This document shows positions 2,719-56,318 of a DNA stretch of 64,000 bases, one piece after another (positions within the stretch are counted from its first letter, which is position 1; every line of letters starts with the position of its first letter). The position numbers were made by a program, and so were the translations under genes. Origin of the DNA: Minisyncoccia bacterium (GTDB taxonomy: Bacteria > Patescibacteriota > Minisyncoccia > Phycocordibacterales > UBA918); the NCBI GenBank assembly GCA_046293175.1, contig JBKBPM010000001.1, forward strand, positions 4,484 to 68,483, in the 5' to 3' direction. The notes beneath the pieces were generated by a model. That model was not told where the DNA came from and searched no databases. It saw nothing but the letters and a program-made list of their open reading frames with translations.

Positions 2719-2913
2719 TAGTAGGTGGCTCAATAAACAGAGTTGGAAATGGCACCAAAAAAACGCCCGCGGAAGGCGCATTTTGGTGGGTGGACCAAAA
2801 TTAATTATAGTCGCTACGCTCATTAATTTCGGCCACATTCGCCATTGTTGGGCTAAAGCTCTTTGTGGCTCATGTTACTTTTCTTTATCTTCTAATGTTA
2901 TACTCTTGAACAT

Positions 2914-3993: not shown

Positions 3994-3996
3994 GTT

Positions 3997-4359
3997 ATGC
4001 GGAAAATTGTCACTGCAGCTTTTTGTTCTGTGGCAAATCAACCGTGGTGGGTGAGGTTGGGTATGGTGGGGACCCATATCGGTTGGATTGGTGCCGCCTA
4101 CCTCGCGTATCATGCCAATGATATGCCGCTTATGTTAATTGCGATTGGCACGATACTATTCTCGTGTACGTTTCACCTGACCGGACGTCGTGGTTTTGAG
4201 ATTATCGACACTGCCTACGCGGCTCTTTATATAGGCCTTGGCCCGTTGCTCCTTAGTGTAGCTGGCGCATCTCTGAAAGAATGGTTGTTTGGTGGTGTTG
4301 TGACACTTGCTGCGCTCTTTTATCTATACGATATCGACCCATCGCCGATTGAGTGGTAA
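3997..4359 (+). CDS. Small integral membrane protein, unknown function
   Basis: 120-aa ORF with 3-4 hydrophobic helices immediately after epimerase gene. Confidence 0.35.
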   Translation: MRKIVTAAFCSVANQPWWVRLGMVGTHIGWIGAAYLAYHANDMPLMLIAIGTILFSCTFHLTGRRGFEIIDTAYAALYIGLGPLLLSVAGASLKEWLFGGVVTLAALFYLYDIDPSPIEW

Positions 4360-4482: not shown

Positions 4483-5301
4483 TTGTGGTATACTCACCTC
4501 CATATGATTATTGATGGACGAGCATTGGCGGGTGCAATCGTATCAGATTTACGAAAAGAAACCGCCGCTATGGCAGGATTGCCGCTCCTCACTGTTTTTA
4601 CCTGTGCACCAAATTTTGAAACGAAGAAGTTTCTTGATCTCAAAACGAAGCGAGCAGCAGAGGCTGGTATCTCGGTCAGTGTGATTGAACTTCCGCCAAA
4701 CGTTACGTTGGCTCAGGTGAACACCGCCATCAATCAAAGTCGAACTATTAGTGACGGTATCATTATCCAGTTTCCGTTTCCACACCTCACTACCAAAGAC
4801 CTCATTGATTTACTACCAACCGAGCTCGATGTTGATGTTACGAATTATGATGGACAAGCCAAGGGATTATTGCCGCCAGTGGTAGGGGCGATTGCAGAAA
4901 TCAGCCAAGCTCATACTATTGATTGGGTTGGGAAGTCGGTGGTGGTGGTGGGTAATGGGCGCCTGGTGGGCGCGCCTGCGGCTGCCTATGCTGTAACCCA
5001 AGGAGCGACGGTGACCGTGGTCACCAAAGACTCCAATAATCTTTCAGTGACTCATGACGCTGATATTATTATTCTCGGTGCTGGTTCGCCGGGACTCCTC
5101 ACACCAGAGATGGTGAAAGACGGAGTTGTGGTATTTGATGCGGGAACTTCCGAAGAGGGAGGTATGCTCGTGGGCGATGCCCATCCTCTTGTGGCGAACA
5201 AAGCCAGTCTATTCACCCCAGTCCCTGGAGGAATAGGTCCGTTAACCATTGCCATACTCCTCAAAAACGTGCTCTATTTGGCCAAACAGCATAGAAAATA
5301 A
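4483..5301 (+). CDS. folD: Bifunctional methylene-THF dehydrogenase / methenyl-THF cyclohydrolase FolD (start possibly ATG 4504, MIIDGR)
   Basis: MIIDGRALA...; VVVGNGRLVGAPAA NADP-binding loop; TPVPGGIGPLTIAILLKN C-terminal motif. Confidence 0.85.
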   Translation: MWYTHLHMIIDGRALAGAIVSDLRKETAAMAGLPLLTVFTCAPNFETKKFLDLKTKRAAEAGISVSVIELPPNVTLAQVNTAINQSRTISDGIIIQFPFPHLTTKDLIDLLPTELDVDVTNYDGQAKGLLPPVVGAIAEISQAHTIDWVGKSVVVVGNGRLVGAPAAAYAVTQGATVTVVTKDSNNLSVTHDADIIILGAGSPGLLTPEMVKDGVVVFDAGTSEEGGMLVGDAHPLVANKASLFTPVPGGIGPLTIAILLKNVLYLAKQHRK

Positions 5302-7792: not shown

Positions 7793-8344
7793 ATGATTAT
7801 TGGTATTGCCGGAACCGACGGATCTGGAAAAGGCACGGTCGTTGATCATCTCGTTAAAAATTATGGCTTTGCGCATTACTCCAGCCGAGCGATTATTCTT
7901 GAACACATAAACGCTTTTGGATTGCCTGACACTCGAGCTCAGATGCGGCTCTCCGCTAATGAGCTACGTGCAAAGCATGGAAATGATTTTTTGGTGACAC
8001 AAGCACTTAAACGCATGCAGCGTGATGGTGTACATAATGCGATTATCGAATCAATTCGAGCTACCGCTGAAGCAAATACACTAAAATCTCACGGAGGAAT
8101 CCTGCTCGCTGTTGATGCCAATCAAGAACTTCGTTATGAGCGTGTACAAGCTAGACGTTCAGAAACAGACCGAGTCTCATTTGAGCAATTTGTTGCACAT
8201 GAAGAGCTTGAAAAGAATGATCCCGACCCTCATGGTATGCAAAAAGGGAAAGTGATTGAAATGGCCGATTACACCATCATGAACGATGGTACCATAGAGG
8301 AGTTGCATCAGGCGGTTGATGCGTTTATGCAAAAATATCTCTAA
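7793..8344 (+). CDS. P-loop nucleotide/nucleoside kinase family protein (exact substrate unclear)
   Basis: Walker A IGIAGTDGSGKGTV at N-terminus, 183 aa, kinase-like size. Confidence 0.5.
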   Translation: MIIGIAGTDGSGKGTVVDHLVKNYGFAHYSSRAIILEHINAFGLPDTRAQMRLSANELRAKHGNDFLVTQALKRMQRDGVHNAIIESIRATAEANTLKSHGGILLAVDANQELRYERVQARRSETDRVSFEQFVAHEELEKNDPDPHGMQKGKVIEMADYTIMNDGTIEELHQAVDAFMQKYL

Positions 8345-8349
8345 TAATA

Positions 8350-8390
8350 AAAAAGACCGGCACCTAGAGGTGCCGGTCTTCAGTATTTTT
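8350..8390. terminator. Bidirectional rho-independent terminator between convergent genes
   Basis: aaaaagaccggcacctagaggtgccggtcttcagtatttttg; 9-bp GC-rich stem flanked by A-run and T-run. Confidence 0.7.
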
Positions 8391-8396
8391 GACCTC

Positions 8397-9095
8397 TTAA
8401 TTATGAATCCTGGTGCCGATAAACGGACGTCCGGCCAAGTAATCCTCAAGGCTTGATAGCTTCAGGCCATTAAGCTGCGCGACTTCAATATTATCGCGCT
8501 CGGCCACCTTCGCAGCCACGGGGTCAAATGGAGCAGAGAGACCAGGTGCCCAATCTTCAGGGATGAGTTTGCGGAAGTCAGCCCAGGTGATGTCTTCGAT
8601 CTTCTGCGCGTCTGGATTCGTGTGTGGGTTGTCCGTGTACACGTAGTCAGTGTTCGAGAGGTTGATGACGGTCTTCGCACCAATCTTCTCCGCAATCTGG
8701 ACGGCGCGGAGGTCAGTGGAGCAGCCAGGACGATATCCAGCCGCAATAATGACGCGGTACTGCGGAGGCACATCAAGGACCTCGTCAGGGTTCTTGATCA
8801 TAATGTGGTAGGCAATATCACGAAAGATAGTTCGCAAAAGGTGGCCATTAAGGTGAGTCGAGTGAATGCCAAGCCAATCAAGGTCATCTCGGGTCAGGTC
8901 AGTCACGTCACCGGCTGCGTCTTGGTAGCGTCTCGCCGTCTTGCCACCGCCGGCGATGATAATAAAACGACGACCACTTTGGGTCGCTTCATTGGTGACT
9001 AAGGATTTGAGGGTCTTCAAAAAGGTGGTGTCAATCTGATCAGGGACAATCAGTGATCCGCCAACTGACATAACAATGGTTTCTGTGGTAGTCAT
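8397..9095 (-). CDS. Amino-acid-kinase-fold protein, UMP kinase (PyrH)-like; start taken at MTTTET rather than upstream ORF-track start
   Basis: IVMSVGGSLIVPD ... FIIIAGGGKTARRY ... VIIAAGYRPGCSTD pattern of the aspartokinase/UMP-kinase fold. Confidence 0.55.
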   Translation of the reverse strand: MTTTETIVMSVGGSLIVPDQIDTTFLKTLKSLVTNEATQSGRRFIIIAGGGKTARRYQDAAGDVTDLTRDDLDWLGIHSTHLNGHLLRTIFRDIAYHIMIKNPDEVLDVPPQYRVIIAAGYRPGCSTDLRAVQIAEKIGAKTVINLSNTDYVYTDNPHTNPDAQKIEDITWADFRKLIPEDWAPGLSAPFDPVAAKVAERDNIEVAQLNGLKLSSLEDYLAGRPFIGTRIHN

Positions 9096-9160
9096 AACGA
9101 CTTCATTGTACGTGAGTAGGGTAACTTGTAAACAAATATGAAGTGGTACAATAGGGACAT

Positions 9161-10129
9161 ATGGAAAATGAACCACAACAAATTGAAACGTCAACGCAAC
9201 CGGCAATGGCTGCCACCAAGCCTGTCATTACCTCGGGGCGTCAATTGCTCCGGCAATCACTTGGATTTACCTTCACTAACTTTTGGCCACTTTTTGCTAT
9301 TTCACTACTCTCAGGACTAGTAGCGCTCCCGAGTCTTATTTTGGCTTTATATCTCGATACCCAGCTCGATTCGTCACTGGCGGTACAATATGGTCTTGCC
9401 ATCCTCGTGACCGTACTTGGTCTTGTCGGATCAATTGCATCTATGACCATGGCGACCCGCGCCACCATGCACGCCGGGGAATGGCGGTTGTCGGCTATTC
9501 TCGGGAGCCTAGGTCAGCTCTGGTGGCCACTGTCGCTCACGATCTTTTTTGCCTACGCAGTGATGGGGGCTGGGTTTATTTTCTTTATCATCCCGGGCAT
9601 CGCTTTTACTGTCTTTCTCTTGCCAATTATGTGGGTAGTGGCAGTGGAAGGGCTCCGTGGCAAGGCAGCCTTGGTTCGTTCGATTACGCTGGTGTCTCAG
9701 TACTGGTGGACGGTCTTTGGTCGGCTCTGCTTCCTCGGCCTCGTGTGTCTCTTGGCTTTTGTGGCAGGACTTCTTGCTGTGGTGGTCTTTTCGCCAGCTG
9801 CCTTTTTCCTTTATATGATTAATGAAACGTTTGCCCTTATTGTCTCTGTATCGGGAGCAGTAGCTGTTTATCTTGTGACAGCTACCTTTGCAACGTTTGT
9901 GATGATGCGGTATTCGCTCTTGCTCTACGAAGATTTGGTGCAGGCGACGACGGTCGAGAAAACTCCTAGCCGGTGGAGTGGCTGGCCACTGTCGGTTTTC
10001 TTGGTTATCGGTTCGCTCCTTGGTGTGCTGTACTTGCTGGCACTTCCGTACCTAACGCTAGAGGATATGCGTGAAAATACCGATGAGCCACTCCCATGGG
10101 AAGCAAGTCTCGAAGAGTTTTTTAACTAA
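9161..10129 (+). CDS. Polytopic membrane protein, unknown function
   Basis: 322 aa with at least 6 hydrophobic helices; no recognised catalytic motif. Confidence 0.4.
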   Translation: MENEPQQIETSTQPAMAATKPVITSGRQLLRQSLGFTFTNFWPLFAISLLSGLVALPSLILALYLDTQLDSSLAVQYGLAILVTVLGLVGSIASMTMATRATMHAGEWRLSAILGSLGQLWWPLSLTIFFAYAVMGAGFIFFIIPGIAFTVFLLPIMWVVAVEGLRGKAALVRSITLVSQYWWTVFGRLCFLGLVCLLAFVAGLLAVVVFSPAAFFLYMINETFALIVSVSGAVAVYLVTATFATFVMMRYSLLLYEDLVQATTVEKTPSRWSGWPLSVFLVIGSLLGVLYLLALPYLTLEDMRENTDEPLPWEASLEEFFN

Positions 10130-10141
10130 AGAACAGACACA

Positions 10142-10180
10142 GTAAAAGACCATCTTACTCGTGAGGTGGTCTTTTATGAG
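10142..10180. terminator. Hairpin terminator between convergent genes
   Basis: aaagaccatcttactcgtgaggtggtcttttatg. Confidence 0.5.
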
Positions 10181-10187
10181 CAGAGAG

Positions 10188-10763
10188 CTATTTTGTAGTA
10201 ACGCGCACTCCCCAGGGGGTGGTGGTCAGAGGGTTGCGGTACCGGCGGCAGACAGGGAAGAGACAGAAGGCTAATATCACGATGATAATAGAGCGCCAGA
10301 ACTGAAACCCAATCCACCACTCATCCGTCATCGTGTGCCGCACAATTTCGTTTGTGATACCAGCTACCAGAAAGATACTAAACCAGAACCAGGTCATGAC
10401 CTGCCAGCCAGCCGGAAGGAGATCAAAGGATTGGCCAAACAGGCGTTCGAGCAAGGGTTTTGACCACGTCCGACTGCGGTAGAGGACGGCGGCACCAAGG
10501 AGGAAATAAACCGTATCTGAGAAAATAATGATATCGGGGGTGTTGCCAAAGAACGTGAGCAATCCCGACACAATCACAAAAAAGCCAAAAATGAGGGATA
10601 GTGCCGGTAGTCGCTTCTGGTAGAGGAGCATCACAGCCACGACCGCAATGGTGACGTATACATAGAGGAGAGTCGAGGTGATGAAATCGTAGTGGTAACT
10701 GGCGACGTAGAACACGACCATTGGCACACATTCGAGCAAAAAGAGGAGAGTTGTCTTCACCAT
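10188..10763 (-). CDS. YciB/IspZ-like inner-membrane (intracellular septation protein A family) protein; start placed at MVKTTLL
   Basis: 5-TM layout and LLERLFGQSFDLLPAGWQVMTWFWFSIFLVAGITNEIV segment resembling YciB core. Confidence 0.45.
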   Translation of the reverse strand: MVKTTLLFLLECVPMVVFYVASYHYDFITSTLLYVYVTIAVVAVMLLYQKRLPALSLIFGFFVIVSGLLTFFGNTPDIIIFSDTVYFLLGAAVLYRSRTWSKPLLERLFGQSFDLLPAGWQVMTWFWFSIFLVAGITNEIVRHTMTDEWWIGFQFWRSIIIVILAFCLFPVCRRYRNPLTTTPWGVRVTTK

Positions 10764-11016
10764 GTGACGTAATGGTATCACAGTCCGCTCGGCAACTGGT
10801 ATAGGGGGAACAAATAATCGCCAAAAAGGCATTACTTGACAGCACTTTATTTATCCACTGTAATTATTTGACACTTAGTTATTCCTGTGCTAGGTTAGGC
10901 GGGCTTGGGGGATGGTCTCCATCCTTACTGGCCCTGCTACCAACCCTGAGGGGCGTGGACGATTAGCGGGTTGCAACTCACCAGGGCTTTATGCCCGTAC
11001 TTGAAAGAGGCTTACG

Positions 11017-11436
11017 ATGAAACTGAAGAATTCCATGCTTGGCATCGCCGTCATCGCCCTGACCGCTGTTCTCGCCCTCCCGGCCGCCGCGACCGGTTCC
11101 GGCGGCTGCTGGTACTGTGGGGGTGTGAAGGAACGCTCTGCGACCTTCAGCTCGAATGCCGGTGGCGGTGTCGTCAATGAAGGGCAGGCCCTCGCAGCGG
11201 GCAAGAAAACCTTGACCTTGTCGACCTCTGTGTCGACCAAGGACCTGGGCGCTGGCGGTTCGGCCGTGGTCCCGGAGAAAGGCGATCCGAAGGCTTCGGC
11301 CTATTCCTATGCCGACTTCCAGACCTCGGGTCTTTCCATGTCGCTGGCGGTCGGGACGACGTCCGCTGCCGCAGCGTCGATGGAGACCGGCGAGGCGGTC
11401 GCTACGGGTTCGGCCGAGACCGCGGTCGACAACTAA
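11017..11436 (+). CDS. Secreted Ala/Gly/Ser/Thr-rich protein in high-GC islet (foreign-looking)
   Basis: About 65% GC and GCC/CTG/ACC codon bias unlike the rest of the window; signal peptide MKLKNSMLGIAVIALTAVLALPAAA; SD-like aagagg 8 nt upstream. Confidence 0.5.
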   Translation: MKLKNSMLGIAVIALTAVLALPAAATGSGGCWYCGGVKERSATFSSNAGGGVVNEGQALAAGKKTLTLSTSVSTKDLGAGGSAVVPEKGDPKASAYSYADFQTSGLSMSLAVGTTSAAAASMETGEAVATGSAETAVDN

Positions 11437-11458
11437 GCCGATTCGTTCGGTTCAAGAT

Positions 11459-11490
11459 AAAGGGGGTTCCAGCAATGGGACCCCCACTTT
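11459..11490 (+). terminator. GC-rich rho-independent terminator
   Basis: aaagggggttccagcaatgggacccccactttttata. Confidence 0.7.
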
Positions 11491-11643
11491 TTATACTTGA
11501 CAAATTAATCTAGATATGGTAGCTTTTGAGCGCTACCGTTATGGAGCCTGATACCCTTGGTTATCTTTGGGACCGCTATCAGATCTGTACTCGCCTGGGG
11601 ATGTCCCCAATCAAATCCAATGTCAAACTAGAAGGATGATGAC

Positions 11644-12396
11644 ATGTTGAATATCAAAACCTTGGCTCTGATGGGTGCTTTTGCTCTGAGCCCGCTGGCT
11701 GTCTATGCCAACGGGAGCGATGCGTCTTCGGAATCCAATGCGAATTCCCAGTCGACGTCGATCGCTGGCGCTCAGGCGCTCAACAACGTCGAGCTGAACT
11801 CGGTGGCTGTGGCCCTCTCGGGCACGGACTGCACCAATGGCGCCGGTGCCAGCTTCGCCGGTTTCGGTTTCGTCTTCCAGATGACCGATGCCGAGTGCAA
11901 GCAGCTGCGGGCTGCGCTGGCGATGGATACGACCGGCACCGGCTCGAAAGGCTCGGTTCGGGCGCTCATCATCGCCTCGGCTTCGACCAAGGGCTTCGCT
12001 CCACCTCCCGGCTTGCCGGCGACGGTCGAAACCTGCGATTACCGCCACGAGAACCGGACGCTCTTTTTCCGGTCGAGTGCCAACAGCCTCGAAGGCCAGC
12101 TGAGCGATCGTCTTGCGTGCATCATCAGCCGCGAAACCATGCTCGAGGTCAACCTGTCGGCGCTGCGGCACAAGACCGAGGCCCGCTTGGCCAAGCTCTC
12201 TGCTGCTTCGGCCCCGGCGGCCGTCTCGACGAAGAGCAATGGCGCCTCCAGGAGCCTGCTGTCTGTCACCGACACCAAGGTTCGGGTCCGGGTGAATGGG
12301 ATCAACTACCCGATCACCGGCAAGAACTTGGTCGACTGGCAGTCGGGTCGGCCCCTCAACTTCGGTGGTGTGTCGCTCACCAAGTTCGACTTCTGA
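11644..12396 (+). CDS. Secreted, possibly outer-membrane-type beta-rich protein in high-GC islet (ends ...SLTKFDF with C-terminal Phe)
   Basis: Signal peptide MLNIKTLALMGAFALSPLAVYA; alternating hydrophobic pattern near C-terminus; terminal aromatic residue as in diderm OMPs; about 64% GC. Confidence 0.5.
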   Translation: MLNIKTLALMGAFALSPLAVYANGSDASSESNANSQSTSIAGAQALNNVELNSVAVALSGTDCTNGAGASFAGFGFVFQMTDAECKQLRAALAMDTTGTGSKGSVRALIIASASTKGFAPPPGLPATVETCDYRHENRTLFFRSSANSLEGQLSDRLACIISRETMLEVNLSALRHKTEARLAKLSAASAPAAVSTKSNGASRSLLSVTDTKVRVRVNGINYPITGKNLVDWQSGRPLNFGGVSLTKFDF

Positions 12397-12439
12397 CACC
12401 GCACATCAACTGCACAGCGCGCTCGCGCGCTGTGCGCCT

Positions 12440-12478
12440 TGACCCCGTTCGCTTTGCGAGCGGGGTCTTTTACTTTGT
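12440..12478 (+). terminator. Rho-independent terminator
   Basis: gaccccgttcgctttgcgagcggggtcttttactttg. Confidence 0.7.
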
Positions 12479-12561
12479 ATATACAATGGATGATTTTTTT
12501 ATATTGCATTTGGTTTCTAAATATGGTGACATAGAGTGAGAACAGGTTTTAATCAACGGGG

Positions 12562-12849
12562 GTGTCGATGACTCAACAGGTGACAGTTACCACCAGTCTG
12601 CGTATGCAAATCATCGGCTTCTTCCTCATCACGATGGTGGGGATCCTCCTTTGGTTTGCTTTTGAACTACGGCAAGTAGTAAAGGGTCACGAAGTGGCAG
12701 CGTCATTGCACACTGCAGAAATCGTGCGCGTGGTAATGCCTGCCGAGGAAGTTCCTGGCATGTGCTTGCCATTGTTGCCGGTTAAATTGTGGAATCGAGA
12801 CCCGGCGACAGTACCCGATCCACCACCATGGACACGTGTGGTGGTCTAA
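12562..12849 (+). CDS. Hypothetical small membrane protein (GTG start) in high-GC islet
   Basis: 95-aa ORF with one TM (IIGFFLITMVGILLWFAF); followed by terminator aggccccgttcgagagaacggggcct at 12868-12895. Confidence 0.3.
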   Translation: MSMTQQVTVTTSLRMQIIGFFLITMVGILLWFAFELRQVVKGHEVAASLHTAEIVRVVMPAEEVPGMCLPLLPVKLWNRDPATVPDPPPWTRVVV

Positions 12850-12950
12850 AGCGGCTGCACAGGCCCCGTTCGAGAGAACGGGGCCTTGCTTGTAAAAACG
12901 GCTGATTTGTTGCATAATAAAATTGAATCACCAAGACAGAAAGGAGGTGT

Positions 12951-13148
12951 ATGGTGGTGCGGGAATACAAGGGTCCTGAAAGAAGAGGTCCAGATATGCT
13001 GATCAAACTGGTTTTTCTTGGGGTGATAACCTTGATGATTTATCTCACCTGGTTAGCTCCTCGACCGCAGCCTGGCTGTCTGGGTCAAGAACCGACTTGG
13101 GTGGTCGGTTTACCAACCTGTGATGGGTTGGTGCCATCAGAAGAATGA
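12951..13148 (+). CDS. Hypothetical small membrane protein with strong SD
   Basis: aaaggaggtgtATG (canonical GGAGG SD, 5-nt spacer); single TM LIKLVFLGVITLMIYLTWLA; terminator aggcctcgtccacaaggacgaggcct at about 13176-13212. Confidence 0.35.
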   Translation: MVVREYKGPERRGPDMLIKLVFLGVITLMIYLTWLAPRPQPGCLGQEPTWVVGLPTCDGLVPSEE

Positions 13149-13294
13149 AGAATCGTTTTTGGATTTAGAAGAAACATGGCCTCGTCCACAAGGACGAGGC
13201 CTCATTTTGTCTCATTTTTGCTGCTGGCCGCGCGGGCTTTTTACACCTGGTCAACCAGCCGCTTTGGGGTAGGTATTTTATCCGCGTTAAATGC

Positions 13295-13322
13295 TTGCAT
13301 TATTTTTCAATATCTGTATAAT
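13295..13322 (+). promoter_or_regulatory. Candidate sigma70-type rRNA promoter (TTGCAT-N16-TATAAT) upstream of 16S
   Basis: ttgcattatttttcaatatctgtataat about 460 nt upstream of 16S 5' end in an AT-rich leader. Confidence 0.45.
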
Positions 13323-13783
13323 GCTCGCACTGTTCGTTGGAAGTAATTCAGGCCTTCTTTTGAGGTCTATCACTTTCGAAGGGAACACTGCATTTTGACA
13401 ACCTCGCGAAGAAGCATCTGAATCTTTGGTTCAGAAATTTATTCGTGGGAACCAAACTAATTTTGAGGAACTAGTTTTGGTCAATATCACTTATCTGATT
13501 CCCAAAATCAGATAGGTACGTATATTATTTTTTACATTTTTTAAAATGTAGACAAATGGTATGCATCAGCACAAATATAAGCAATTGAATATCGAATATT
13601 CTTTTGTCTTATCCTTAGGTAAATTGTTAGAAAGCAGCGGGAACCAAAGTACAGTACCGCTACATATTCAGTTATGAACTTTCTAGCGCAGATCACAGAA
13701 ATGAAAAATGAAGAATTATAAATGAAAAATTATTTTTTCATTTATAACTTCTCATTCATAATTTCTTTCTTCTGTCTTTAATT

Positions 13784-15232
13784 AGAGTTTGATCCTAGCT
13801 CAGGATGAATGCTGGCGGCGTGGATGAGGCATGCAAGTCGAATGGGTTTAGGCCCATGGCAGACGAGGTAGGAACACGTAGGTACGTACCCAAGAGTCAG
13901 GGATAACCGGCCGAAAGGTCGAATAATACTTGATGGTCCCTTCGGGGTAAAGATTTATCGCTCTTGGAACGGCCTGCGGGCTATCAGCTTGTTGGTAAGG
14001 TAACGGCTTACCAAGGCTACGACGGCTAGGGGAGGTGAGAGCCTGACCCCCACCGATGGAACTGCGACACGGTCCATACTCCTACGGGAGGCTGCAGTCG
14101 AGAATCTTCCGCAATGGACGAAAGTCTGACGGAGCGACGCCGCGTGGTGGATGAAGTCCCTCGGGACGTAAACACCTTTTATGAGGGAGGAAGTTTATTG
14201 ACGTTACCTCATGAATAAGGGGCTCCCAACTCTGTGCCAGCAGGAGCGGTAATACAGAGGCCCCAAGCATTATCCGGATTTACTGGGCGTAAAGGGTGCG
14301 TAGGCGGTTATATTAGTCGGGTGTTAAATCCCGGGGCTCAACCCCGGAATCGCATCCGAAACGGTATAACTAGAATCAGTCAGAGGCAAGCAGAACTCTC
14401 GGTGTAGGGGTGAAATCCGTTGATATCGAGGGGAATACCAAATGCGAAGGCAGCTTGCTGGGACTTGATTGACGCTGAGGCACGAAAGCGTGGGTAGCGA
14501 AGCGGATTAGATACCCGCGTAGTCCACGCCCTAAACGCTGTCTGTTGGCTATAGGGAGTATCGACCCTCTCTGTGGCGAAGTTAACACGTTAAACAGACC
14601 GCCTGGGTAGTACGAGCGCAAGCTTAAAACTCAAAGGAATAGACGGGGGCTCGCACAAGCGGTGGATCATGTGGCTTAATTCGTAGCTAAGCGAAAAACC
14701 TTACCAAGGCTAGAAACTATACTGCACGCTCCGGGAAACCGGAGAAGCCTTCGAGGGTGTATAGCAGGTGATGCATGGCCGTCGTCAGTTCGTGGCTTGA
14801 GCTGTTCCCTTAAGTGGGGAAACGAACGCAACCCTCGTTGCCTGTTACAAGTGTCAGGCGAGACTGCTCCCTCACGGGAGAGGAAGGTGAGGATGACGCC
14901 AGGTCAGCATGTCCCTTGATGCCTTGGGCTGCACACGTGATACAATGGGTGATACAATGGGACGCAATACCGTAAGGTGGAGCAAATCCCCAAAACCATC
15001 CTCAATTCGGATTGAGGTCTGCAACTCGACCTCATGAAGTCGGAATCGCTAGTAATCGTGAATCAGCACGTCACGGTGAATACGTTCCCGAGCCTTGTAC
15101 TCACCGCCCGTCAACTCAAGGGAGTCGGGAGTGCCCGAAGTGCCAGTTTATCTGGTCCTACGGTAAGCTCGATGACAGGGAGTAAGTCGTAACAAGGCAC
15201 GGCTAGCGGAAGCTGGTCGTGGATTAATTCCA
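13784..15232 (+). rRNA. rrs: 16S ribosomal RNA (complete, about 1450 nt), CPR-like divergent
   Basis: agagtttgatcctagctcag 5' end; gtgccagcaggagcggtaatac (515 region variant); ggattagatacccgcgtagtcc; gtactcaccgcccgtcaactc; 3' end gtcgtaacaaggcacggctagcggaagctggtcgtggattaattcc. Confidence 0.93.
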
Positions 15233-15454
15233 ATTGGACACGTCGTTGCGTCTTGGTAACAAGATTGCACATAACGGCTAATTGGTCGATATTAGGTAGC
15301 TCAATTGACTACCTAATGAGTAGACGATACAGAACACTCTGAAGTGGTATCGGACTTTTAGGAAAGACTAAAGCCAAAGGATAAGACAAAAGAGCAGACG
15401 AGCAATTGCTTTTTTTGTACCCTATATTTGTTGCATATTGATATGAAGTGGGTG

Positions 15455-15497
15455 AAAAACACCGCTGTCCCGTAGGGACAGCGGTGTTTTTCGTATG
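15455..15497. terminator. Bidirectional terminator directly downstream of 16S (no ITS or 23S follows)
   Basis: aaaaacaccgctgtccctacgggacagcggtgtttttcg. Confidence 0.75.
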
Positions 15498-15507
15498 GGC
15501 GATAGTT

Positions 15508-15975
15508 TTAGATATCAAAGACTGGCGGCAGCTCGCCCCGGGTGGCGCTTGGTGAACGTGGTTGTGGGCGAGGGGACGTGCATGGGGCGTAACTTGTATA
15601 GTCATCACTCAAATAATCTGGTACGACATCATTCCCGCAGTTATCAAGACCAAGACCATCGGTGAAGATATTAATAATGCCCCAAAACGAGAGAATAAAA
15701 ATGAAGACACCAATACTGTAGAGGGCGAGGTTCTTGGCGTTTTCTCGACCCTCTTCGGTAGCACCTTTAATTATAAAAAAACGAACACCGTTCCAGACAA
15801 AGATCAGAAAAGCAACCCCAAGCAGGAAGGGGATGAGATAATTGTTGAAAAATTGAAACAATACTGGTAGAGCATCTTGTAGACCGCCTGGCCCTGTGGC
15901 CATACTCATACCAGCGGCGATCACCAAAATGATGATCATTCCAAGTCCCATAGACATGCCACTACTATAGCGCAT
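15508..15975 (-). CDS. Small polytopic membrane protein (weak resemblance to TrbC/VirB2-type pilin topology); start placed at MRYSSGMSMG
   Basis: Three hydrophobic helices, Pro/Ser-rich C-terminal tail. Confidence 0.4.
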   Translation of the reverse strand: MRYSSGMSMGLGMIIILVIAAGMSMATGPGGLQDALPVLFQFFNNYLIPFLLGVAFLIFVWNGVRFFIIKGATEEGRENAKNLALYSIGVFIFILSFWGIINIFTDGLGLDNCGNDVVPDYLSDDYTSYAPCTSPRPQPRSPSATRGELPPVFDI

Positions 15976-16010
15976 TTGTGGGCCTTTTTCACTGTTTTGC
16001 TGGGGAATTA

Positions 16011-16038
16011 TTGACTTTTGGCCATTTTTGTGTATAAT
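16011..16038 (+). promoter_or_regulatory. Strong sigma70-like promoter TTGACT-N16-TATAAT
   Basis: ttgacttttggccatttttgtgtataat, followed by SD-bearing small ORF. Confidence 0.5.
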
Positions 16039-16104
16039 ATTAAGTAAGTGGGGTGACCCACAAGGAGCTTGAAAACGCGCCTCGTGGCGCAAAAGGAGGA
16101 AACA

Positions 16105-16235
16105 TGTTGAGAGAATTGCCTTGGATTCTGTTGGAATGTCTCATCAAGGCCGTCCTCGTTTTCGTCCCGGAGACGAAGATGACAGCCGAGGAGGCGAACC
16201 AGGAAGGTCCGCGGGACTACCTGTCCCGCAAATAA
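16105..16235 (+). CDS. 43-aa small protein in high-GC islet
   Basis: aaaaggaggaaacATG canonical SD; MLRELPWILLECLIKAVLVFVPETKMTAEEANQEGPRDYLSRK; not in ORF track (<60 aa). Confidence 0.3.
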
Positions 16236-16279
16236 CTTAACCAGCCCGCAAAGACGGGCATATGAGGAGAGAGCAGAAA

Positions 16280-16426
16280 TGACGCAAGAACAAATTGTAG
16301 AGCTGGTACAACGTCGTCCTTGGACGATGATCATTGCAGCTCTCATACTGGTGGCCGTGGTCACGGCGATTGGTTCTGGGATCGAAACCTACATCTACCC
16401 GGTGTTGAAGAGGTGGGGGCTGTGAA
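16280..16426 (+). CDS. 48-aa single-TM small protein in high-GC islet
   Basis: gaggagagagcagaaATG SD; MTQEQIVELVQRRPWTMIIAALILVAVVTAIGSGIETYIYPVLKRWGL; followed by hairpin aggaggcggaatctgccgcctct at about 16577-16605. Confidence 0.35.
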
Positions 16427-16675
16427 GGTTCACCCTCTTGACAGCAATGCAAACCTCCGCGTGAAGCTCAATCGCCGCTCACCCGGCCGATGGTTTCGCA
16501 AGGAAGTGCTGTCTTACTCACTGCATGTGCGAATGACTGTCGTACTGCTCGGGATTTGTGTTCTTTGATGGATGATGTAAGGAGGCGGAATCTGCCGCCT
16601 CTTGCTGCTTGGACATTCGGTCCCGGCAGCTTTTGTTTTATGAGACTATTTGCGGTACAATCTCGTGCATTGCCT

Positions 16676-16782
16676 AGGTGGTGTAATTGGTAGGTGAGAC
16701 AGTGTGGAGCACTGTCGAACGGCGCTTCAGGTGCGTATGCCGCAAGGCGTGGAGGCTGTCATAATCTGGGAGATTATGACAG
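16676..16782 (+). pseudogene. Partial, interrupted duplicate of tRNA-Leu (D-arm, anticodon arm and variable arm) followed by an 11-bp perfect hairpin
   Basis: Shares gtggtgtaattggtag (16 nt) and cgcttcaggtgcgtatgccgcaaggcgtggagg (33 nt) with the intact tRNA-Leu 140 bp downstream. A 29-nt insert replaces ccacgta, and the T-arm and acceptor are replaced by ctgtcataatctgggagattatgacag. Confidence 0.45.
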
Positions 16783-16818
16783 GAAGTTGCTCGGTATTTT
16801 ATAAATTGAAGATATAGT

Positions 16819-16900
16819 GCTGGAGTGGTGTAATTGGTAGCCACGTACGCTTCAGGTGCGTATGCCGCAAGGCGTGGAGGTTCAAGTCCTCTCTCCAGCA
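16819..16900 (+). tRNA. tRNA-Leu (anticodon CAG), long variable arm, no encoded CCA
   Basis: Acceptor GCTGGAG/CTCCAGC, D-loop TAATTGGTAG, anticodon loop TTCAGGT, variable arm TGCCGCAAGGCGTG, T-loop TTCAAGT. Confidence 0.8.
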
Positions 16901-17220
16901 CTATGTATTCAATAAGATACCAGCAACCTATACAGATTCTGTAAGAATCAAGTCCTCTCCTAGATACAAACATAAAACCTTTCGAGTCAACTCAAAAGGT
17001 TTTATGCTACTTCATTTGAAATCTTTTTGCGTCTTTTGTCGTTACGAGTTACTAAGTATAATTTTCACAAGTTCAATTATACTAAGTACTCTTGACCACG
17101 ACTCACGGTTCGCAAGCTCACAACGTTCCGTCTCGGACAAAGGTCGTATCTACCAAAACTAGTAAATACTAACAACTAAAAACACCATTCCATAAGAATG
17201 GTGTTTTTAGTTGTTTCCTT

Positions 17221-17259
17221 TGTCCGCGCTCTAGGATTCGAACCTAGGACCTTTCGAGT
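17221..17259. repeat. 39-bp perfect direct repeat copy of the 3' portion of tRNA-Ile (second copy 17390-17428 is inside the intact tRNA)
   Basis: tgtccgcgctctaggattcgaacctaggacctttcgagt identical at both loci. A further 19-bp near-identical copy of the tRNA 3'-flank (tctttttgcgtcttttgtc) lies at 17021-17040 versus 17375-17393. Confidence 0.8.
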
Positions 17260-17391
17260 GAGCCAGTTTGGGAAACTGGCGCAAGACTCATCCTGAATCT
17301 TTTGGAGCTTTGCGAACAAAAGAAGCGGATGAGTGGACAGCTCCTGTAAGGAGTCAGTCGAATGCTTTTAAATGTTCTTTTGCGTCTTTTG

Positions 17392-17465
17392 TCCGCGCTC
17401 TAGGATTCGAACCTAGGACCTTTCGAGTATCAGTCGAATGCTCTAGCCAACTGAGCTAAGCGCGG
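17392..17465 (-). tRNA. tRNA-Ile (anticodon GAT)
   Basis: Reverse complement CCGCGCTTAGCTCAGTTGGCTAGAGCATTCGACTGATACTCGAAAGGTCCTAGGTTCGAATCCTAGAGCGCGGA folds as cloverleaf with loop CTGATAC. Confidence 0.8.
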
Positions 17466-20873: not shown

Positions 20874-20900
20874 TATAGCGTATATGCTATAGTAGTTTGT

Positions 20901-22187
20901 ATGGAAAAGCATATTCACTTTATTGGTATTGGTGGAATCGGTATGAGTGCCTTGGCGCGTTTTTGGCAACACGAGGGAGCGGTGGTGACGGGGAGTGATC
21001 GTGAGCCCAGTCTTATCACCAAAGGGCTGGAAGACCTCGGCATCGTTATTGACTATGAGCAAAAAGCGGAGAATGTAAGTTCGAGGAAAGACCTCGAACT
21101 AGTGGTGTACACCGAAGCGATGCCAAAGGATCATCCGGAGATGATGGCCGCGCGTGAGCTTGGAGTACCAATGGTCAACTACTTTGAAGCGCTTGGCCAA
21201 GTCGCAAACGAGTACTACCTTATTGCGGTAGCCGGCAGTCATGGGAAGACGACGACCACTGCGATGATTACCGACATTCTCGAAGAAGCGGGCCTTGATC
21301 CAACTGCTATTATTGGTTCACTCCGCAGCAAGACAAAGAGCAACTTTCGCGCCGGGAAGAGCAAATATGCGGTGGTGGAAGCTTGTGAGTATAAACGAGA
21401 CTATCTTCATCTTGAGCCTGATGTGCTCGTGATCACGAACCTCGAATGGGAGCATGTTGACTACTACAAAGACCTCGCTGATGTGCAGAGCGCCTTTCGG
21501 GAGCTCGCACTTAAAGTGCCTGAAGACGGTGCGATTGTAACTAATGTCACGGATCCTAATATCGCACCAGTGATTGCAGGCCTCTCGACCAACATTATCG
21601 ACTATCGTCCGCTCATTGACTTGACCCTCAAGCTCCGTCAGCCGGGTATGCACACCCGCATGAATGCGGCTGCGGCTCGTGGCGCGGCCGAGTTCCTCGG
21701 TATTGAAACAACAAAGGTGAATGAAGCACTTAAGTGGTTTGCGGGGACCTGGCGTCGGTTTGAATACAAAGGGGAAGTGAATGGCGCTCCAGTCTATGAT
21801 GACTACGGACACCATCCAACCGAGCTGCGCGCAACATTTGCTGGAGTGCGTGAGCTCTATCCTGACCATAAGCTCAAGGTAGTATTTCAATCCCATACCT
21901 ATTCCCGTACCTACGAACTGTTTACTGATTTTGTAACGGTACTTGCTACTGCGGATGAGGTATCGCTTTTGCCAATCTACGCCGCTCGTGAAGAAAACAA
22001 ATGGGGGGTAACGAGTGAAAAGCTCGCTGCAGAAATTATTGCAAAGGGTACCCCTTGTACGGTCTACGAGACGATTCCGGCTTGTGCCCTCGCGATCAAA
22101 GAATCACTCTCGTACGAGAAAAAAGAAGTGGTCTTAGTGATTGGTGCAGGAGCGGTGACGGAGGTTGCAACTCTGCTCACTGAGTAG
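20901..22187 (+). CDS. murC: UDP-N-acetylmuramate--L-alanine ligase MurC
   Basis: HFIGIGGIGMSALA N-terminus, AVAGSHGKTTTTAMI P-loop. Confidence 0.85.
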   Translation: MEKHIHFIGIGGIGMSALARFWQHEGAVVTGSDREPSLITKGLEDLGIVIDYEQKAENVSSRKDLELVVYTEAMPKDHPEMMAARELGVPMVNYFEALGQVANEYYLIAVAGSHGKTTTTAMITDILEEAGLDPTAIIGSLRSKTKSNFRAGKSKYAVVEACEYKRDYLHLEPDVLVITNLEWEHVDYYKDLADVQSAFRELALKVPEDGAIVTNVTDPNIAPVIAGLSTNIIDYRPLIDLTLKLRQPGMHTRMNAAAARGAAEFLGIETTKVNEALKWFAGTWRRFEYKGEVNGAPVYDDYGHHPTELRATFAGVRELYPDHKLKVVFQSHTYSRTYELFTDFVTVLATADEVSLLPIYAAREENKWGVTSEKLAAEIIAKGTPCTVYETIPACALAIKESLSYEKKEVVLVIGAGAVTEVATLLTE

Positions 22188-22433: not shown

Positions 22434-23380
22434 ATGTTAAAAACTGCTGAATGTGTTTCACCTCGTCATCCTGATAAGATTTGTGATCGGATTTCTGACG
22501 CTGTTCTTGATGTGTATCTATCTGAGGACCCAAAAAGTCGAGTGGCGATTGAGGCGGTGGGGAGTCATGGTCAGGTGTGGGTGACTGGGGAGGTTACCTC
22601 AACTGCGACCGGCATCGATATTCCGGCTATTGTCCGCGAGATAGCGGGAGATAATTTAGAAATTCGTGTGCACGTCGTAGCGCAGAGTCCAGAGATTGCG
22701 CAGGGGGTGGATGTAGGTGGTGCGGGTGACCAAGGTATTATGACCGGCTATGCCACCCGTGAGACCAAAAGTTATATGCCACGTGAGTACGAGTTGGCCC
22801 GTCAGCTCTGTCAGAAGGTATATGAAGTTTTCCCGTTTGATGGCAAGACTCAAGTGACGGTTGATGGTACCGGTGCAGTTACCTCAGTGGTCTGTAGTTT
22901 CCAAAACGCACCAAAGGCTAAGCTTGAAGCGCTCGTACGGTCGGTGATCCCTAATGCTCGCGAATACCACATCAATCCCGCTGGTGATTGGAGTCAGGGC
23001 GGCTTTGATGCTGATGCTGGGCTTACTGGACGTAAGATTATTGTCGACAACTATGGACCTGAGGTGGCAGTTGGTGGCGGCGCCTTCTCTGGTAAAGATC
23101 CGAGCAAGGTAGACCGTAGCGCCGCCTATATGGCACGGCGCATTGCAGTTGATTATCTCGAGGCACGGCCTGAAGCGAATACGGTCCTCGTGAAGCTTGC
23201 GTACGCCATTGGGCACCCTGAGGCACTTATGGCGGTCGCTATCGTCGACGGCGTACCAGAGACGGTCGAAGGGTACAATCTCACCCCGCAGGAATTAAGG
23301 ATTTCCTCGGGCTTGAGGCACCAATCTACGCTGATACGGCAGCGTGGGGGCACTTTGGGCGCGGGTTTAGTTGGAGGTAG
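22434..23380 (+). CDS. metK: S-adenosylmethionine synthetase MetK (compact form) with an apparent 1-nt deletion or frameshift near 23298-23301; true frame ends at TAG 23378-23380
   Basis: HPDKICDRISDAVLD, GGGAFSGKDPSKVDRSAAY signatures in frame 0; conserved C-terminus DFLGLEAPIYADTAAWGHFGRGFSWR* is in the -1 frame starting at 23300. Confidence 0.8.
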
Positions 23381-23387
23381 GAGAACA

Positions 23388-23427
23388 AGAAAAGGCCGGA
23401 GCTATCGCTCCGGCCTTTTCTTTTTTC
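23388..23427 (+). terminator. Rho-independent terminator between metK and rsmI
   Basis: aaaaggccggagctatcgctccggccttttcttttttc. Confidence 0.75.
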
Positions 23428-23457
23428 AAAATCGTGGTACGGTATGGCAACTACGTA

Positions 23458-24143
23458 TGCATAAAATTGGCACCCTTTTTGTCGTTGCTACCCCGATTGG
23501 GAACATGGAGGATATCACACTCCGTGCGCTTCGGGTTTTTCGTGAAGTAGATTATGTGTTGTGTGAGGATACTCGTACGACCGGGAATCTTTTGAAGCAC
23601 CACGGGGTAAAGGCCAAACTAAAACGTTACGATGCACATGCCAGTGTCGCCGCTCACGAAGCGATTGTGGCTGACCTGGTCGTCGGGCAGTCAATTGCCC
23701 TGGTTTCAGACGCCGGAACCCCAGGTGTCTCAGATCCCGGAGTGGTCCTGGTACGCCAAGCCCGCGCCGCGGGCTGTCGGATTGATGCTATTCCTGGTGC
23801 GTCAGCTATTACGGCCGCTATTTCTATCGCTGGTATCAACGGAAATCAGTTTAGTTTTCTCGGCTTTGTCCCAAGTAAGAAGGGGCGCGAGACATTTTTT
23901 GCAGATCTCGAGCTCTATGATCATCCGGTAGTTTTTTTTGAGGCAACTCACCGTATTCTTAAAACACTAGAGAGCCTCGCGGCACAGTACAGTACCGCTA
24001 CGCTTCATCTCGCGCGAGAACTTACCAAATTCCATGAAGAGATGCTTGTGGGATCGCCGGCGGAGATTTTGGCAACCTTAACCGCAGCACCGGTCAAGCA
24101 AAAAGGGGAGTTTGTACTTATTTTGACCCAACCAAACGCCTAA
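23458..24143 (+). CDS. rsmI: 16S rRNA (cytidine1402-2'-O)-methyltransferase RsmI (tetrapyrrole-methylase fold)
   Basis: MHKIGTLFVVATPIGNMEDITLRALRVFREVDYVLCEDTRTTGNLLKHHGV; ORF track fuses it to metK only because of the upstream frameshift. Confidence 0.8.
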
Positions 24144-26127: not shown

Positions 26128-26179
26128 AAAGTGTACATAACGGTCATTTTAGCTCTTCTCTCTCGGGTATACTTGGGGT

Positions 26180-27718: not shown

Positions 27719-27890
27719 AGTTTTTATATAATCACTAACTACCGCGTTACCTCCGTCTTTTAGGTCTTTTAACGTATAAAAGGTACACTTCAGACTTGCA
27801 GTCATAGGCGTCCTTGTATTTAGCGATTATCTGACAAACTACAGAGAGGGTGGCTCTAAAAAAAGTGAACTATAGTATAATGACAACAAC

Positions 27891-52387: not shown

Positions 52388-52624
52388 ATTTCACCAACTA
52401 ACCCCATCTTCTTTGTTGTCATCGTCAAAGAAAAAGTCATTGTATATCTAATACGCCTCCTTTTTCTTTTCCTCGACGCCGCGAATCTGCGGTCATTTGC
52501 TGAAATCTAGAACTGGAATTTGTTATTAATGAGAAATTTGTGACTACTGACCGTAGAAAGACATTAGGAATAGGTGTTCGTCTAGAGATGGTCGGTTTTT
52601 TGCCTGTGGTATAGTAGTAGCCAT

Positions 52625-56224: not shown

Positions 56225-56318
56225 GACACCTCCGTGTCGAACTAATAGCAAAAACCGCTTCTAGCGGTTTTTGCTTTGTCTTTGTGTTTCCTATAAAAAA
56301 CGGTATACTTTGCAGGCT

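Follow-up and report, generated by a model that had tools for sequence, protein, structure and literature searches.

A 16S rRNA tail without the anti-Shine–Dalgarno core and a Shine–Dalgarno-bearing gene islet in a Kaiserbacteria-like genome

Loss of the anti-Shine–Dalgarno (anti-SD) sequence from 16S rRNA is rare among bacteria, and its consequences are known mainly from the Bacteroidia and from reduced symbionts. Here we describe the 16S rRNA gene, the start regions of the ordinary genes and a small GC-rich islet in a 64-kb stretch of the genome of a Minisyncoccia bacterium (contig JBKBPM010000001.1, positions 4,484 to 68,483; this whole stretch is called the window below). The host is a Candidatus Paceibacteria of Kaiserbacteria-like type. 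Anti-SD loss in Parcubacteria is already published, and the window is a further case of this known type. Tsurumaki et al. (2022, RNA 28:1041) detected the anti-SD in only 48% of Parcubacteria and found that the lineages without it overlap those without uL1 (PMC9297842). Their Parcubacteria subgroup resembles the window in having a 16S 3′ end without CCUCCU, a short rRNA and a lineage-specific trait, whereas tail sequences, an initiation mechanism, a hairpin between tail and trailer and Shine–Dalgarno (SD)-bearing islets, all treated here, are absent from that paper. Genes for ribosomal proteins do not occur in the window. In passages of a 2018 survey by Amin et al., anti-SD-less organisms are generally SD-less too and no variant anti-SD is paired with a variant SD (PMC6107228). 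Class iv as given there includes Ca. Wolfebacteria and Ca. Campbellbacteria, also Parcubacteria, and shares with the window a 13-nt tail without CCUCC, no SD enrichment and no matching variant SD; a passage of a further survey lists the same two groups among SD-scarce organisms without CCUCC (PMC10783764). Kaiserbacteria-like lineages and the tail GAUUAAUUCCAAU are unnamed in these passages of the two surveys, and promoter-proximal starts lie outside their scope.

Two other described systems are close to the one reported here. Bacteroidia also translate the bulk of their genes independently of SDs and keep a very small set of strong-SD genes, there rpsU (PMC6847099, PMC13000453), and the role of their anti-SD in 16S maturation parallels the conserved tail/trailer hairpin described below (PMC13000453). 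They retain CCUCC, however, and its exposure on ribosomes lacking bS21 explains rpsU translation (PMC6847099, PMC13000453); the window has no CCUCC that could be exposed, and its SD-bearing genes code for small secreted or membrane proteins rather than bS21. Blindness of the Bacteroidia type, where the anti-SD is kept and occluded by bS21, bS18 and bS6, does not describe the window, from which the anti-SD sequence itself is absent.

Leaderless architecture as such is likewise an already known type. The GeneMarkS-2 study of Lomsadze (2018; cited in PMC10434106) reportedly sets apart a ‘group C’ of leaderless-dominated bacteria. Like the window, the leaderless-rich Actinobacteria and Deinococcus-Thermus place a −10 element at a fixed short distance from the start and use ATG starts. 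They keep a canonical anti-SD, with SDs for internal and leadered genes, whereas here the anti-SD is gone, tight coupling appears to serve the internal genes and the most frequent spacing predicts a 2–3-nt leader. In the literature we found no paper tying leaderless mRNAs to Parcubacteria or to the Candidate Phyla Radiation (CPR).

The 16S rRNA tail and its hairpin

The sole small-subunit rRNA match in the window is a complete bacterial 16S rRNA gene on the plus strand at 13777–15234 (Rfam RF00177, 1382 bits against a threshold of 50, full model, positions 1–1533, not truncated). At 1458 nt it is short and of the CPR type. Helix 45 (15198–15221, plus strand; CACGGCUAGC GGAA GCUGGUCGUG) is intact, with 10 of 10 pairs standard or G–U, and is followed by the tail GAUUAAUUCCAAU, which like the tails of anti-SD-less lineages is ~13 nt long and free of CCUCC(U). 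The 3′ alignment to the Rfam model sets the model's GGAUcACCUCCUUu against GGAUUAAUUCCAAU at 15221–15234 (plus strand), where GGAUCACCUCCUUA would be canonical. The CCUCC core has become AUUCC, and of the original core UCC alone is retained.

Within the window we ruled out a canonical tail lying farther downstream or split off by an insertion. No CCTCC occurs anywhere in 15200–15500, and CACCTCCTT occurs without mismatch just once in the 64 kb, as the antisense strand of an mRNA SD (12941–12949). In addition, a leader strand at 13600–13616 (UCUUUUGUCUUAUCCUU, plus strand) is a perfect 17-nt complement of the trailer at 15377–15393 (plus strand), with a duplex energy of −70.3 against −49.5 ± 4.7 for shuffled trailers. 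Because this leader–trailer helix closes at 15377–15393, the mature 16S 3′ end that we infer would have to lie upstream of 15377. With these signals the gene looks like a normally processed rRNA precursor. As a separate observation, CACCTCCTT with at most one mismatch occurs 27 times on the two strands of the window against 12.5 ± 3.1 expected, a count reached by none of 100 shuffles, and codon or composition effects may contribute to it.

We then compared this tail with those of relatives, using a metagenome scan that was anchored on helix 45 with the tail left free. The scan gave 120 16S 3′ ends, 85 without CCUCC and 35 canonical. The window tail, GAUUAAUUCCAAUUGGA, is identical in at least ten independent contigs from unrelated samples and assemblers (L012, L024, L037, L040, L065, L070, L092 and L111, plus L125 and L129), two NCBI Kaiserbacteria genomes included. 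Their 16S genes are 89–96% identical to that of the window by BLAST, and in a rough neighbour-joining tree over 656 conserved alignment columns (identities 85–93%) they and the window form one clade. The tails of sister clades also lack CCUCC (GAAUAAUUCAAUUUGAA, GAAUAUUUCAAGAGAAA, GAUCAAUUAAACUA), the more distant CPR in the sample retain GAUCACCUCCUUUCUAGGGAG, and tail types track 16S clades throughout. Given that an identical tail recurs in at least ten contigs over 85–96% 16S identity, it is a clade trait and not an assembly or sequencing error. Gene order over 1.3–22 kb of the window (Bac_transf, epimerase, FolD, SecD, SecF, AAA kinase, AA-kinase, IspA, islet, 16S, T4SS pilin, VTT, MurD, MurC) is the same as in Ca. 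Kaiserbacteria GCA_001783435.1 (L129).

The altered tail pairs with the sequence that follows it. In canonical CPR, a UCU loop separates CUCCUU from its downstream partner, AGGGAG or AAGGAG; the window's counterpart of CUCCUU-UCU-AGGGAG is a small hairpin of tail and 3′ trailer, UCC AAUU GGA (15229–15238, plus strand), with a stem of just 3 bp (15229–15231 with 15236–15238). The mature 16S would be predicted to end at about 15234–15235, within the loop of this hairpin. The same tail positions pair with the trailer in clades without CCUCC, as UUCC-AAUU-GGAA, UUCA-AUU-UGAA, UUUC-AAGA-GAAA and GUC-AAUU-GAC, and across the L002–L121 tails the stem varies by CPR clade as CUCC/GGAG, UUCC/GGAA, UUCA/UGAA, UUUC/GAAA and GUC/GAC. 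Since loop lengths vary between clades, no single fixed register fits, and hairpins were counted by a script that assumes no register, with shuffled trailers as controls. Of 81 distinct non-CCUCC tails, 62% formed a stem of 4 bp or more over tail position 9, compared with 25% when trailers were shuffled (at most 36% in 200 shuffles); for canonical tails the values were 82% and 13%. The pairs covary between clades at position 7 (CG 21, UA 42), position 9 (CG 62, AU 16, UA 8) and position 10 (CG 35, AU 24). These data suggest that the tail has a role in pre-rRNA processing that is independent of mRNA binding. The covarying hairpin fits the 16S maturation defect of F. johnsoniae, where ablation of the anti-SD impairs 16S maturation (PMC13000453).

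Further features surround the gene. Over 13777–17465 the 16S gene is unlinked from any 23S or 5S gene, and no 23S lies 3′ of it in the window; the nearest RNA genes are tRNA-Leu(CAG) (16819–16901, plus strand) and tRNA-Ile(GAU) (17391–17465, minus strand), of which the latter lies 2.2 kb beyond the 16S gene in opposite orientation and is separated from it by a T4SS-pilin-like gene (15508–15975, minus strand). A putative upstream rRNA promoter found by sequence comparison (TTGCAT, 16-nt spacer, TATAAT; 13295–13322, plus strand) is kept in L037 and L065 and marks the islet's right-hand edge. Directly upstream of the 16S gene, at 13700–13765, is an AT-rich inverted repeat (aaatgaaaaat...atttttcattt) that shares positions with a promoter-like site at 13735–13762. 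The closest relatives carry 16S insertions of ~430–860 nt, typical of CPR rRNA (L012, 2298–3157; L070, 1281–2119; L065, 420–853), at the equivalent of window position 15104/15105, and the window copy does not.

Starts of the native genes

To describe the starts of the native genes, those outside the islet, we took 53 long non-overlapping open reading frames (ORFs) from their first in-frame ATG and compared positions −20 to −1 with those of 792 internal ATGs. Pairing with a canonical tail was no better at starts than at control ATGs (duplex energy −3.48 against −4.17), and GGAG, GAGG or AGGA occurred at 9% of each. With the islet genes set apart, an SD-like word preceded 2 of 51 native genes. 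The native starts also carry no motif complementary to the variant tail. Own-tail duplex energy was worse at starts than at controls (−2.04 against −2.75), 4- to 6-mer complements of the tail were not enriched upstream of the 53 starts, and its 14-mer complement was found 5 times against 6.75 expected. On these grounds a co-evolved SD for the new tail was rejected. The islet genes form the exception to this pattern.

The original prediction, read from the letters of the window, had quoted a 16S tail without CCUCC, had reported that native genes such as murD and murC lack SDs and had suggested that the host initiates translation independently of SDs. Its observation is confirmed overall. The quoted string is exact, Pfam confirms MurD, MurC, SecD, SecF, SecA and GatB, and SD-independent initiation of the host's ordinary genes is supported by the missing CCUCC, the lack of SD enrichment and the lack of any motif matching the new tail.

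The loci of the scan gave a less sharp picture of SD use. Over all loci without CCUCC, a canonical 6-mer SD preceded 5.7% of 406 ORFs against 2.05% of controls (p = 1.5e-5), and the ORFs that carry one exceed their own locus in third-position GC content (GC3) by +0.084 against +0.016 (p = 0.009). A clean contrast between canonical-tail and non-canonical-tail loci had to be given up, the difference being modest (20% against 11% by 4-mer, 7.7% against 5.7% by 6-mer) because the canonical-tail CPR in the sample are SD-poor themselves.

Operon-first native genes have an extended −10 box (TGnTAnnnT) ending 6–10 nt upstream of the ATG, and boxes such as TGGTATACT, TGGTACAAT and TGCTATAGT nearly contact it. 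Hexamers with at least five of six matches to TATAAT peaked at a 9-nt spacer (11 of 53 genes), and 17 of 53 lay at spacers of 6–9 nt; the background of ~1.35% per position refers to the simple TANNNT motif and not to this five-of-six class. When the genes were sorted by layout, 26 had an adjacent −10 box, 14 were coupled, 11 were placed in neither class and four belonged to the islet. An A2/T6 hexamer stood at a spacer of 3–13 nt in 26 of the 37 uncoupled native genes. The 14 coupled genes start −26 to +10 nt from the upstream stop, that is, within 15 nt of it or overlapping it, as in an ATGA stop/start overlap at 41519–41522 (plus strand).

Individual starts, all on the plus strand, illustrate the layout. 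At secA, TATACT is followed by 9 nt and the ATG (56304–56321), and residue 5 of the protein aligns with position 2 of the Pfam profile, in agreement with independent gene calls. The start of folD (TGGTATACT, 9 nt, ATG; 4486–4506) places residue 3 at profile position 1; that of murC (TGCTATAGT, 7 nt, ATG; 20885–20903) also has Pfam support, and a Wzy_C-family membrane protein (PF04932 on the same gene in L122) has the start TGGTATAGT, 9 nt, ATG (52607–52627). At 26168–26182, TATACT lies 6 nt from the ATG, a spacing that predicts a strictly leaderless mRNA. More widely, Pfam profiles begin 2–6 residues from the proposed N-termini of SecA, MurC, GatB, MetK, FolD, two epimerases, the AA-kinase and the AAA kinase, and independent gene calls on Logan contigs agree with the proposed starts, so the starts are not an artefact of the first-ATG rule.

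The same layout is found in anti-SD-less orthologues, namely secA of L114 (TAGAAT, 6 nt) and L016 (TAATAT, 6 nt), the AA-kinase of L037 (TATACT, 6 nt), murC of L016 (TGGTATATT, 9 nt) and secD of L093 (TAGAAT, 8 nt), and adjacent −10 boxes stand at most native genes of L129. Across the 85 loci without CCUCC the −10 box peaks at spacers of 5–8 nt (8, 14, 12 and 10 against a background of ~2), whereas the profile of the 35 canonical-tail loci is flat. As an observation apart, several CPR lineages that retain CCUCC (for example L062, L011 and L013) likewise place −10 boxes right next to the ATG and have SDs at few genes (a 6-mer SD at 7.7% of ORFs). Initiation of this SD-poor, leaderless-like kind may thus be older in Parcubacteria than the loss of the anti-SD.

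With transcription normally beginning some 7 nt past the −10 hexamer, spacings of 6–10 nt predict 5′ untranslated regions of 0–3 nt. Native operon-first mRNAs are accordingly predicted to be leaderless or to have a leader of 0–3 nt, and the cAT-ATG found at many genes suggests a transcription start at its A.

These data allow us to propose a mechanism. We consider it probable that an AUUCC-tailed 16S rRNA, near-leaderless mRNAs and translational coupling together account for initiation without SDs in this organism. A single 16S gene, unlinked from other rRNA genes, would have exchanged CCUCC for the AUUCC tail, and ribosomes with this mutation would be unable to build a normal SD helix. Genes at the head of transcription units, with extended −10 boxes ending 6–10 nt before the ATG, would yield transcripts beginning at the AUG or 1–3 nt before it, and ribosomes would bind these leaderless or near-leaderless mRNAs directly, by means of the start codon and initiator tRNA. 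Later genes of the units, a few nt from the preceding stop, would be reached by termination–reinitiation coupling. The constraints on the tail may already have been relaxed by then, as few genes would have depended on SDs, and Era, which recognises GAUCACCUCC, is lost in most CPR (PMC10582724); SD-dependent genes being few and Era lost, the tail would have been free to change. The constraint remaining on it would be the small hairpin, covarying across clades, that it forms with the beginning of the 3′ trailer.

The GC-rich islet and its Shine–Dalgarno motifs

Between IspA and the rRNA promoter lies the islet (10880–13290, plus strand), recognised from GC and GC3, with four genes, each monocistronic, whose products are small signal-peptide or membrane proteins. 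Its GC content is 0.60–0.66 over 10.85–12.5 kb against 0.478 for the whole window, of which it is the sole clear high-GC islet. GC3 is 0.78 and 0.80 in its first two genes against 0.41–0.52 in native genes, and 0.56 and 0.46, near-native, in the last two. In composition the islet is thus atypical, as genomic islands are. Logan contig L123, an independent assembly, joins it to the native genes on its left.

All four genes, on the plus strand, are preceded by an SD-like motif. The first (11017–11436; 139 aa, signal peptide) has AAGAGG at 11005–11010 and no homologue besides itself; the second (11644–12396; 250 aa, signal peptide) has GAAGGA at 11631–11636 and a leader of ~120 nt, and its product is identical to the NCBI hypothetical protein ACK4SL_00085 of a Candidatus Paceibacteria bacterium; the third (12568–12849; 93 aa, membrane) has GGGGGTG at 12558–12564. 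The fourth, a 65-aa membrane ORF at 12951–13148, carries a perfect canonical SD, AAAGGAGGTG (12940–12949, plus strand; AAAGGAGGUG as RNA), just before its ATG at 12951. The duplex of AAAGGAGGTG reaches −15.5 kcal/mol with the canonical tail and −3.8 with the host's own. A scan detected intrinsic terminators after three of the four genes (11462–11485, 12441–12467 and 13178–13201), and −35/−10-type promoters with leaders of up to ~120 nt were found upstream by eye.

No donor could be identified among plasmids or phages or by protein, Pfam and Rfam searches. The islet proteins have no Pfam domains, no Rfam family matches the islet or its 120-nt leader, plasmid and phage collections show no similarity, and the protein searches returned the proteins themselves and one 1.2-kb JGI fragment only. 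An integrase, tRNA target, flanking repeats or donor match were likewise not found in the islet region. The JGI fragment (L124; GC 0.57, 75% nucleotide identity) holds the sole homologue of the 250-aa gene and shares with the window the terminator, promoter, leader and AAGGAUGA-ATG arrangement. The two genes differ by a synonymous divergence (dS) of ~1 with a ratio of non-synonymous to synonymous divergence (dN/dS) of 0.2, and AAGGAUGA precedes the ATG in both. Their ~120-nt leader (window 11520–11643; L124 210–331) is ~75% conserved and has several GGA motifs. The A(A/G)GGAUGA before the ATG of the 250-aa gene resembles a CsrA-type site. The leader may be a cis-regulatory RNA.

The region between the AA-kinase and 16S varies among relatives. 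In L037 (91% 16S identity) it measures 0.67 kb (670 nt) and has no islet. In L065, whose 16S is 89% identical and has the same tail, the site is taken by another, different GC-rich islet (2600–4200, GC 0.61–0.65) with genes preceded by CAGGAGAA, AGAGGAGAA and AAGGAGAA, and L092 (Ca. Kaiserbacteria RIFCSPLOWO2_02_FULL_45_11) and L125–L132 share a third islet of orthologous genes there, of about 140, 133, 235, 317, 254 and 38 aa, plus a 76-aa gene 3′ of 16S. In L129 this third islet spans 8318–12020 and 16383–16613. The islets of the window, L065 and L092 have no detectable cargo in common, and GC3 remains high (0.6–0.8) across the islets at this site. In L129/L130, none of 15 native genes (GC3 0.25–0.51) has an SD, whereas AGGAG or GGAGG precedes all seven islet genes (GC3 0.58–0.77), none of them with an adjacent −10 box; the anti-SD-less tail lies on the same contig.

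Genome pairs from the L092/L125/L127/L132 set gave an islet dS of 0.4–1.5 against 0.6–1.6 for flanking native genes; this comparison covers the Kaiserbacteria relatives, the window's own islet being compared with the L124 fragment only. As islet dS equals that of the flanking genes, the islet of the Kaiserbacteria relatives has co-diverged with the genome, and its dN/dS of 0.14–0.5 (0.02–0.08 in native genes) implies purifying selection. Over seven orthologue groups, pairwise identity is 85% in the SD columns and 64% in the remaining upstream columns (Fisher p = 3e-9, on pairs that are not independent); g235, for instance, retains (U/C)AGGAG in spite of changes in the flanks and spacing of the motif. 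These data indicate that the islets of the Kaiserbacteria relatives are long resident, with selection on the SD, rather than recently imported. In a separate case of mosaic divergence, g254, g38 and p130 differ between L126 and L127 by a dS of 0.04–0.17, other genes of the locus by 0.9–1.5, which indicates recent within-family recombination around the locus.

The islet motifs were also compared for their fit to the two tails. Islet SDs pair with the canonical tail at a mean of −7.95 kcal/mol against −4.26 with their own tail, a fit matched by 17.5% of composition-matched shuffled tails, and strong canonical SDs precede small ORFs also in clades whose tails lack UUCC. Pairing with the own tail was for these reasons set aside as a full account of the islet SDs. 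We found no second 16S, split exon or conserved CCUCC-bearing element in the sequence available, which did not extend to whole genomes, and in the window, L125, L129 and L131 the surroundings of the rRNA locus yielded no conserved non-coding element with CCUCC. L058, with the same helix 45 and a CCUUC tail, was considered as a second 16S type of the family; at only ~80% identity it is not a paralogue.

Competing explanations

Leadered native mRNAs that bind the 30S subunit without SDs, by way of A/U-rich unstructured leaders, bS1 and Kozak-like contexts as in the Bacteroidia (PMC6847099), would make the −10 boxes coincidental. The AT-rich upstream regions, the Bacteroidia precedent and the 11 native genes without an adjacent −10 box speak for this explanation, as do boxes 15–22 nt upstream at 62199, 63138 and 51560, which would leave short real leaders. 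AT-richness alone would, however, give a flat profile, unlike the sharp peak at 6–9 nt, many of whose boxes have a TGn extension; the peak is repeated at orthologues in other lineages and missing in canonical-tail loci of similar AT content, and we regard leadered mRNAs as unlikely. The docking of mRNA could also persist with an altered specificity, through a new SD complementary to GGAUUAAUUCCAAU such as GGAAUU. UUCC remains able to pair with GGAA and, by means of one G–U, with GGAG; UUGGAG in two islet orthologues makes 6 bp with the organism's own tail, and the tail is invariant over 85–96% 16S identity. Against these points stand the unenriched k-mers and poor duplex energies at native starts, the missing excess of the 14-mer complement, the far better fit of islet SDs to the canonical tail and, as far as the passages of Amin et al. 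go, the lack of any variant anti-SD matched by a variant SD (PMC6107228), which together make a co-evolved SD scarcely credible. The 16S gene might, thirdly, be mis-assembled at its 3′ end, a pseudogene, or accompanied by a second CCUCC-bearing 16S that supplies the ribosomes. The rRNA regions are prone to assembly errors, the window covers 64 kb of a 676-kb contig, a canonical 16S elsewhere would explain the conserved islet SDs, and Alteromonas keeps two tail types according to a passage of the same survey (PMC6107228). The gene is nevertheless full-length and high-scoring, with an intact helix 45 and a 17-bp leader–trailer helix; its tail recurs in at least ten contigs from unrelated samples, tails follow phylogeny, and L058 is no paralogue. 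CPR genomes usually have a single rRNA operon, which also counts against such an artefact, and we judge it very unlikely.

With regard to the islet, the original prediction had spoken of high-GC islets whose genes carry perfect SDs, and had taken these as a sign that the islets came from an SD-using donor and as independent support for horizontal gene transfer. The window has one clear islet and SD-like motifs before all four of its genes, of which only AAAGGAGGTG is perfect. A recent transfer from a GC-rich donor, leaving non-functional SD relics, would explain the GC and GC3 values, the foreign-looking expression signals (−35/−10 promoters, long leaders and terminators), the orphan proteins, the absence of the islet from L037 and the different cargo of the window, L065 and L092. 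Yet several relatives, some with the same tail among them, have SD-bearing islets of high GC at this locus. In the L092/L125/L127/L132 set islet dS is that of the flanking genes, so that these islets are not younger than their surroundings, they are under purifying selection, and their SD columns are conserved beyond the rest of the leader. The 250-aa gene of the window has also diverged far from its sole homologue with AAGGAUGA kept in both, and no sign of mobility or of a donor was found. The islet class looks foreign and behaves as a long-term selected resident, and we hold recent transfer to be possible but doubtful. Of the original interpretation, SD-independent initiation of native genes is therefore supported, and the use of the islet SDs as support for horizontal transfer is weakened.

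Several points weigh against initiation through near-leaderless mRNAs and coupling as proposed above. Of the 51 native genes, 11 fall cleanly into neither class, several of them with a box 15–22 nt upstream, and the commonest spacer, 9 nt, predicts a leader of 2–3 nt rather than a strict 5′-AUG. Canonical-tail CPR loci are SD-poor as well, so SD-poverty is not specific to tail loss. With 64 kb of the contig covered, a second 16S copy with CCUCC is possible elsewhere. Finally, canonical SDs are conserved on islet genes in genomes with the same tail, and some SD reader may persist; the translation of the SD-bearing islet genes falls outside the model.

For these genes we offer a tentative reading that, taken as a whole, is rather improbable: canonical SDs would be kept by selection on a few GC-rich, rRNA-adjacent genes for secreted or membrane proteins in organisms whose 16S has no CCUCC, with the tail constrained by the covarying trailer hairpin and not by mRNA binding. 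If the SDs are under such selection, something other than the standard 16S tail would read them. The reader could be a second 16S of a specialised kind or an alternative 3′ end, an RNA or protein that acts in trans, such as a CsrA-like GGA binder, or residual GGAG:UUCC pairing; a second 16S with CCUCC would account for the islet SDs if present elsewhere in the genome. Alternatively, the motif may have a non-translational role.

Two observations concern other parts of the window. In an unusual fusion, a single 569-aa ORF at 22434–24143 joins all three domains (N, M and C) of S-adenosylmethionine synthetase to a TP_methylase domain of the RsmI/tetrapyrrole methylase family. At 24487–29786 lie genes for a secreted DUF285-repeat protein, a fusion of L,D-transpeptidase and D-Ala-D-Ala carboxypeptidase and a VirD4/TraG-like coupling ATPase, which with the T4SS-pilin-like gene at 15508–15975 point to a type IV secretion or cell-surface module.

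The window offers a clean natural case of anti-SD loss in the CPR with a testable proposal, near-leaderless mRNAs plus coupling. In metagenome-assembled CPR genomes, gene callers whose start models assume SDs will misplace starts, and the proposal also matters for expressing CPR genes in other hosts and for the evolution of translation initiation under relaxed constraints. The parts most worth pursuit are the covarying tail/trailer hairpin and the paradox of the islet SDs, whose resolution would reveal either hidden ribosome heterogeneity in the CPR or SD function without an anti-SD.

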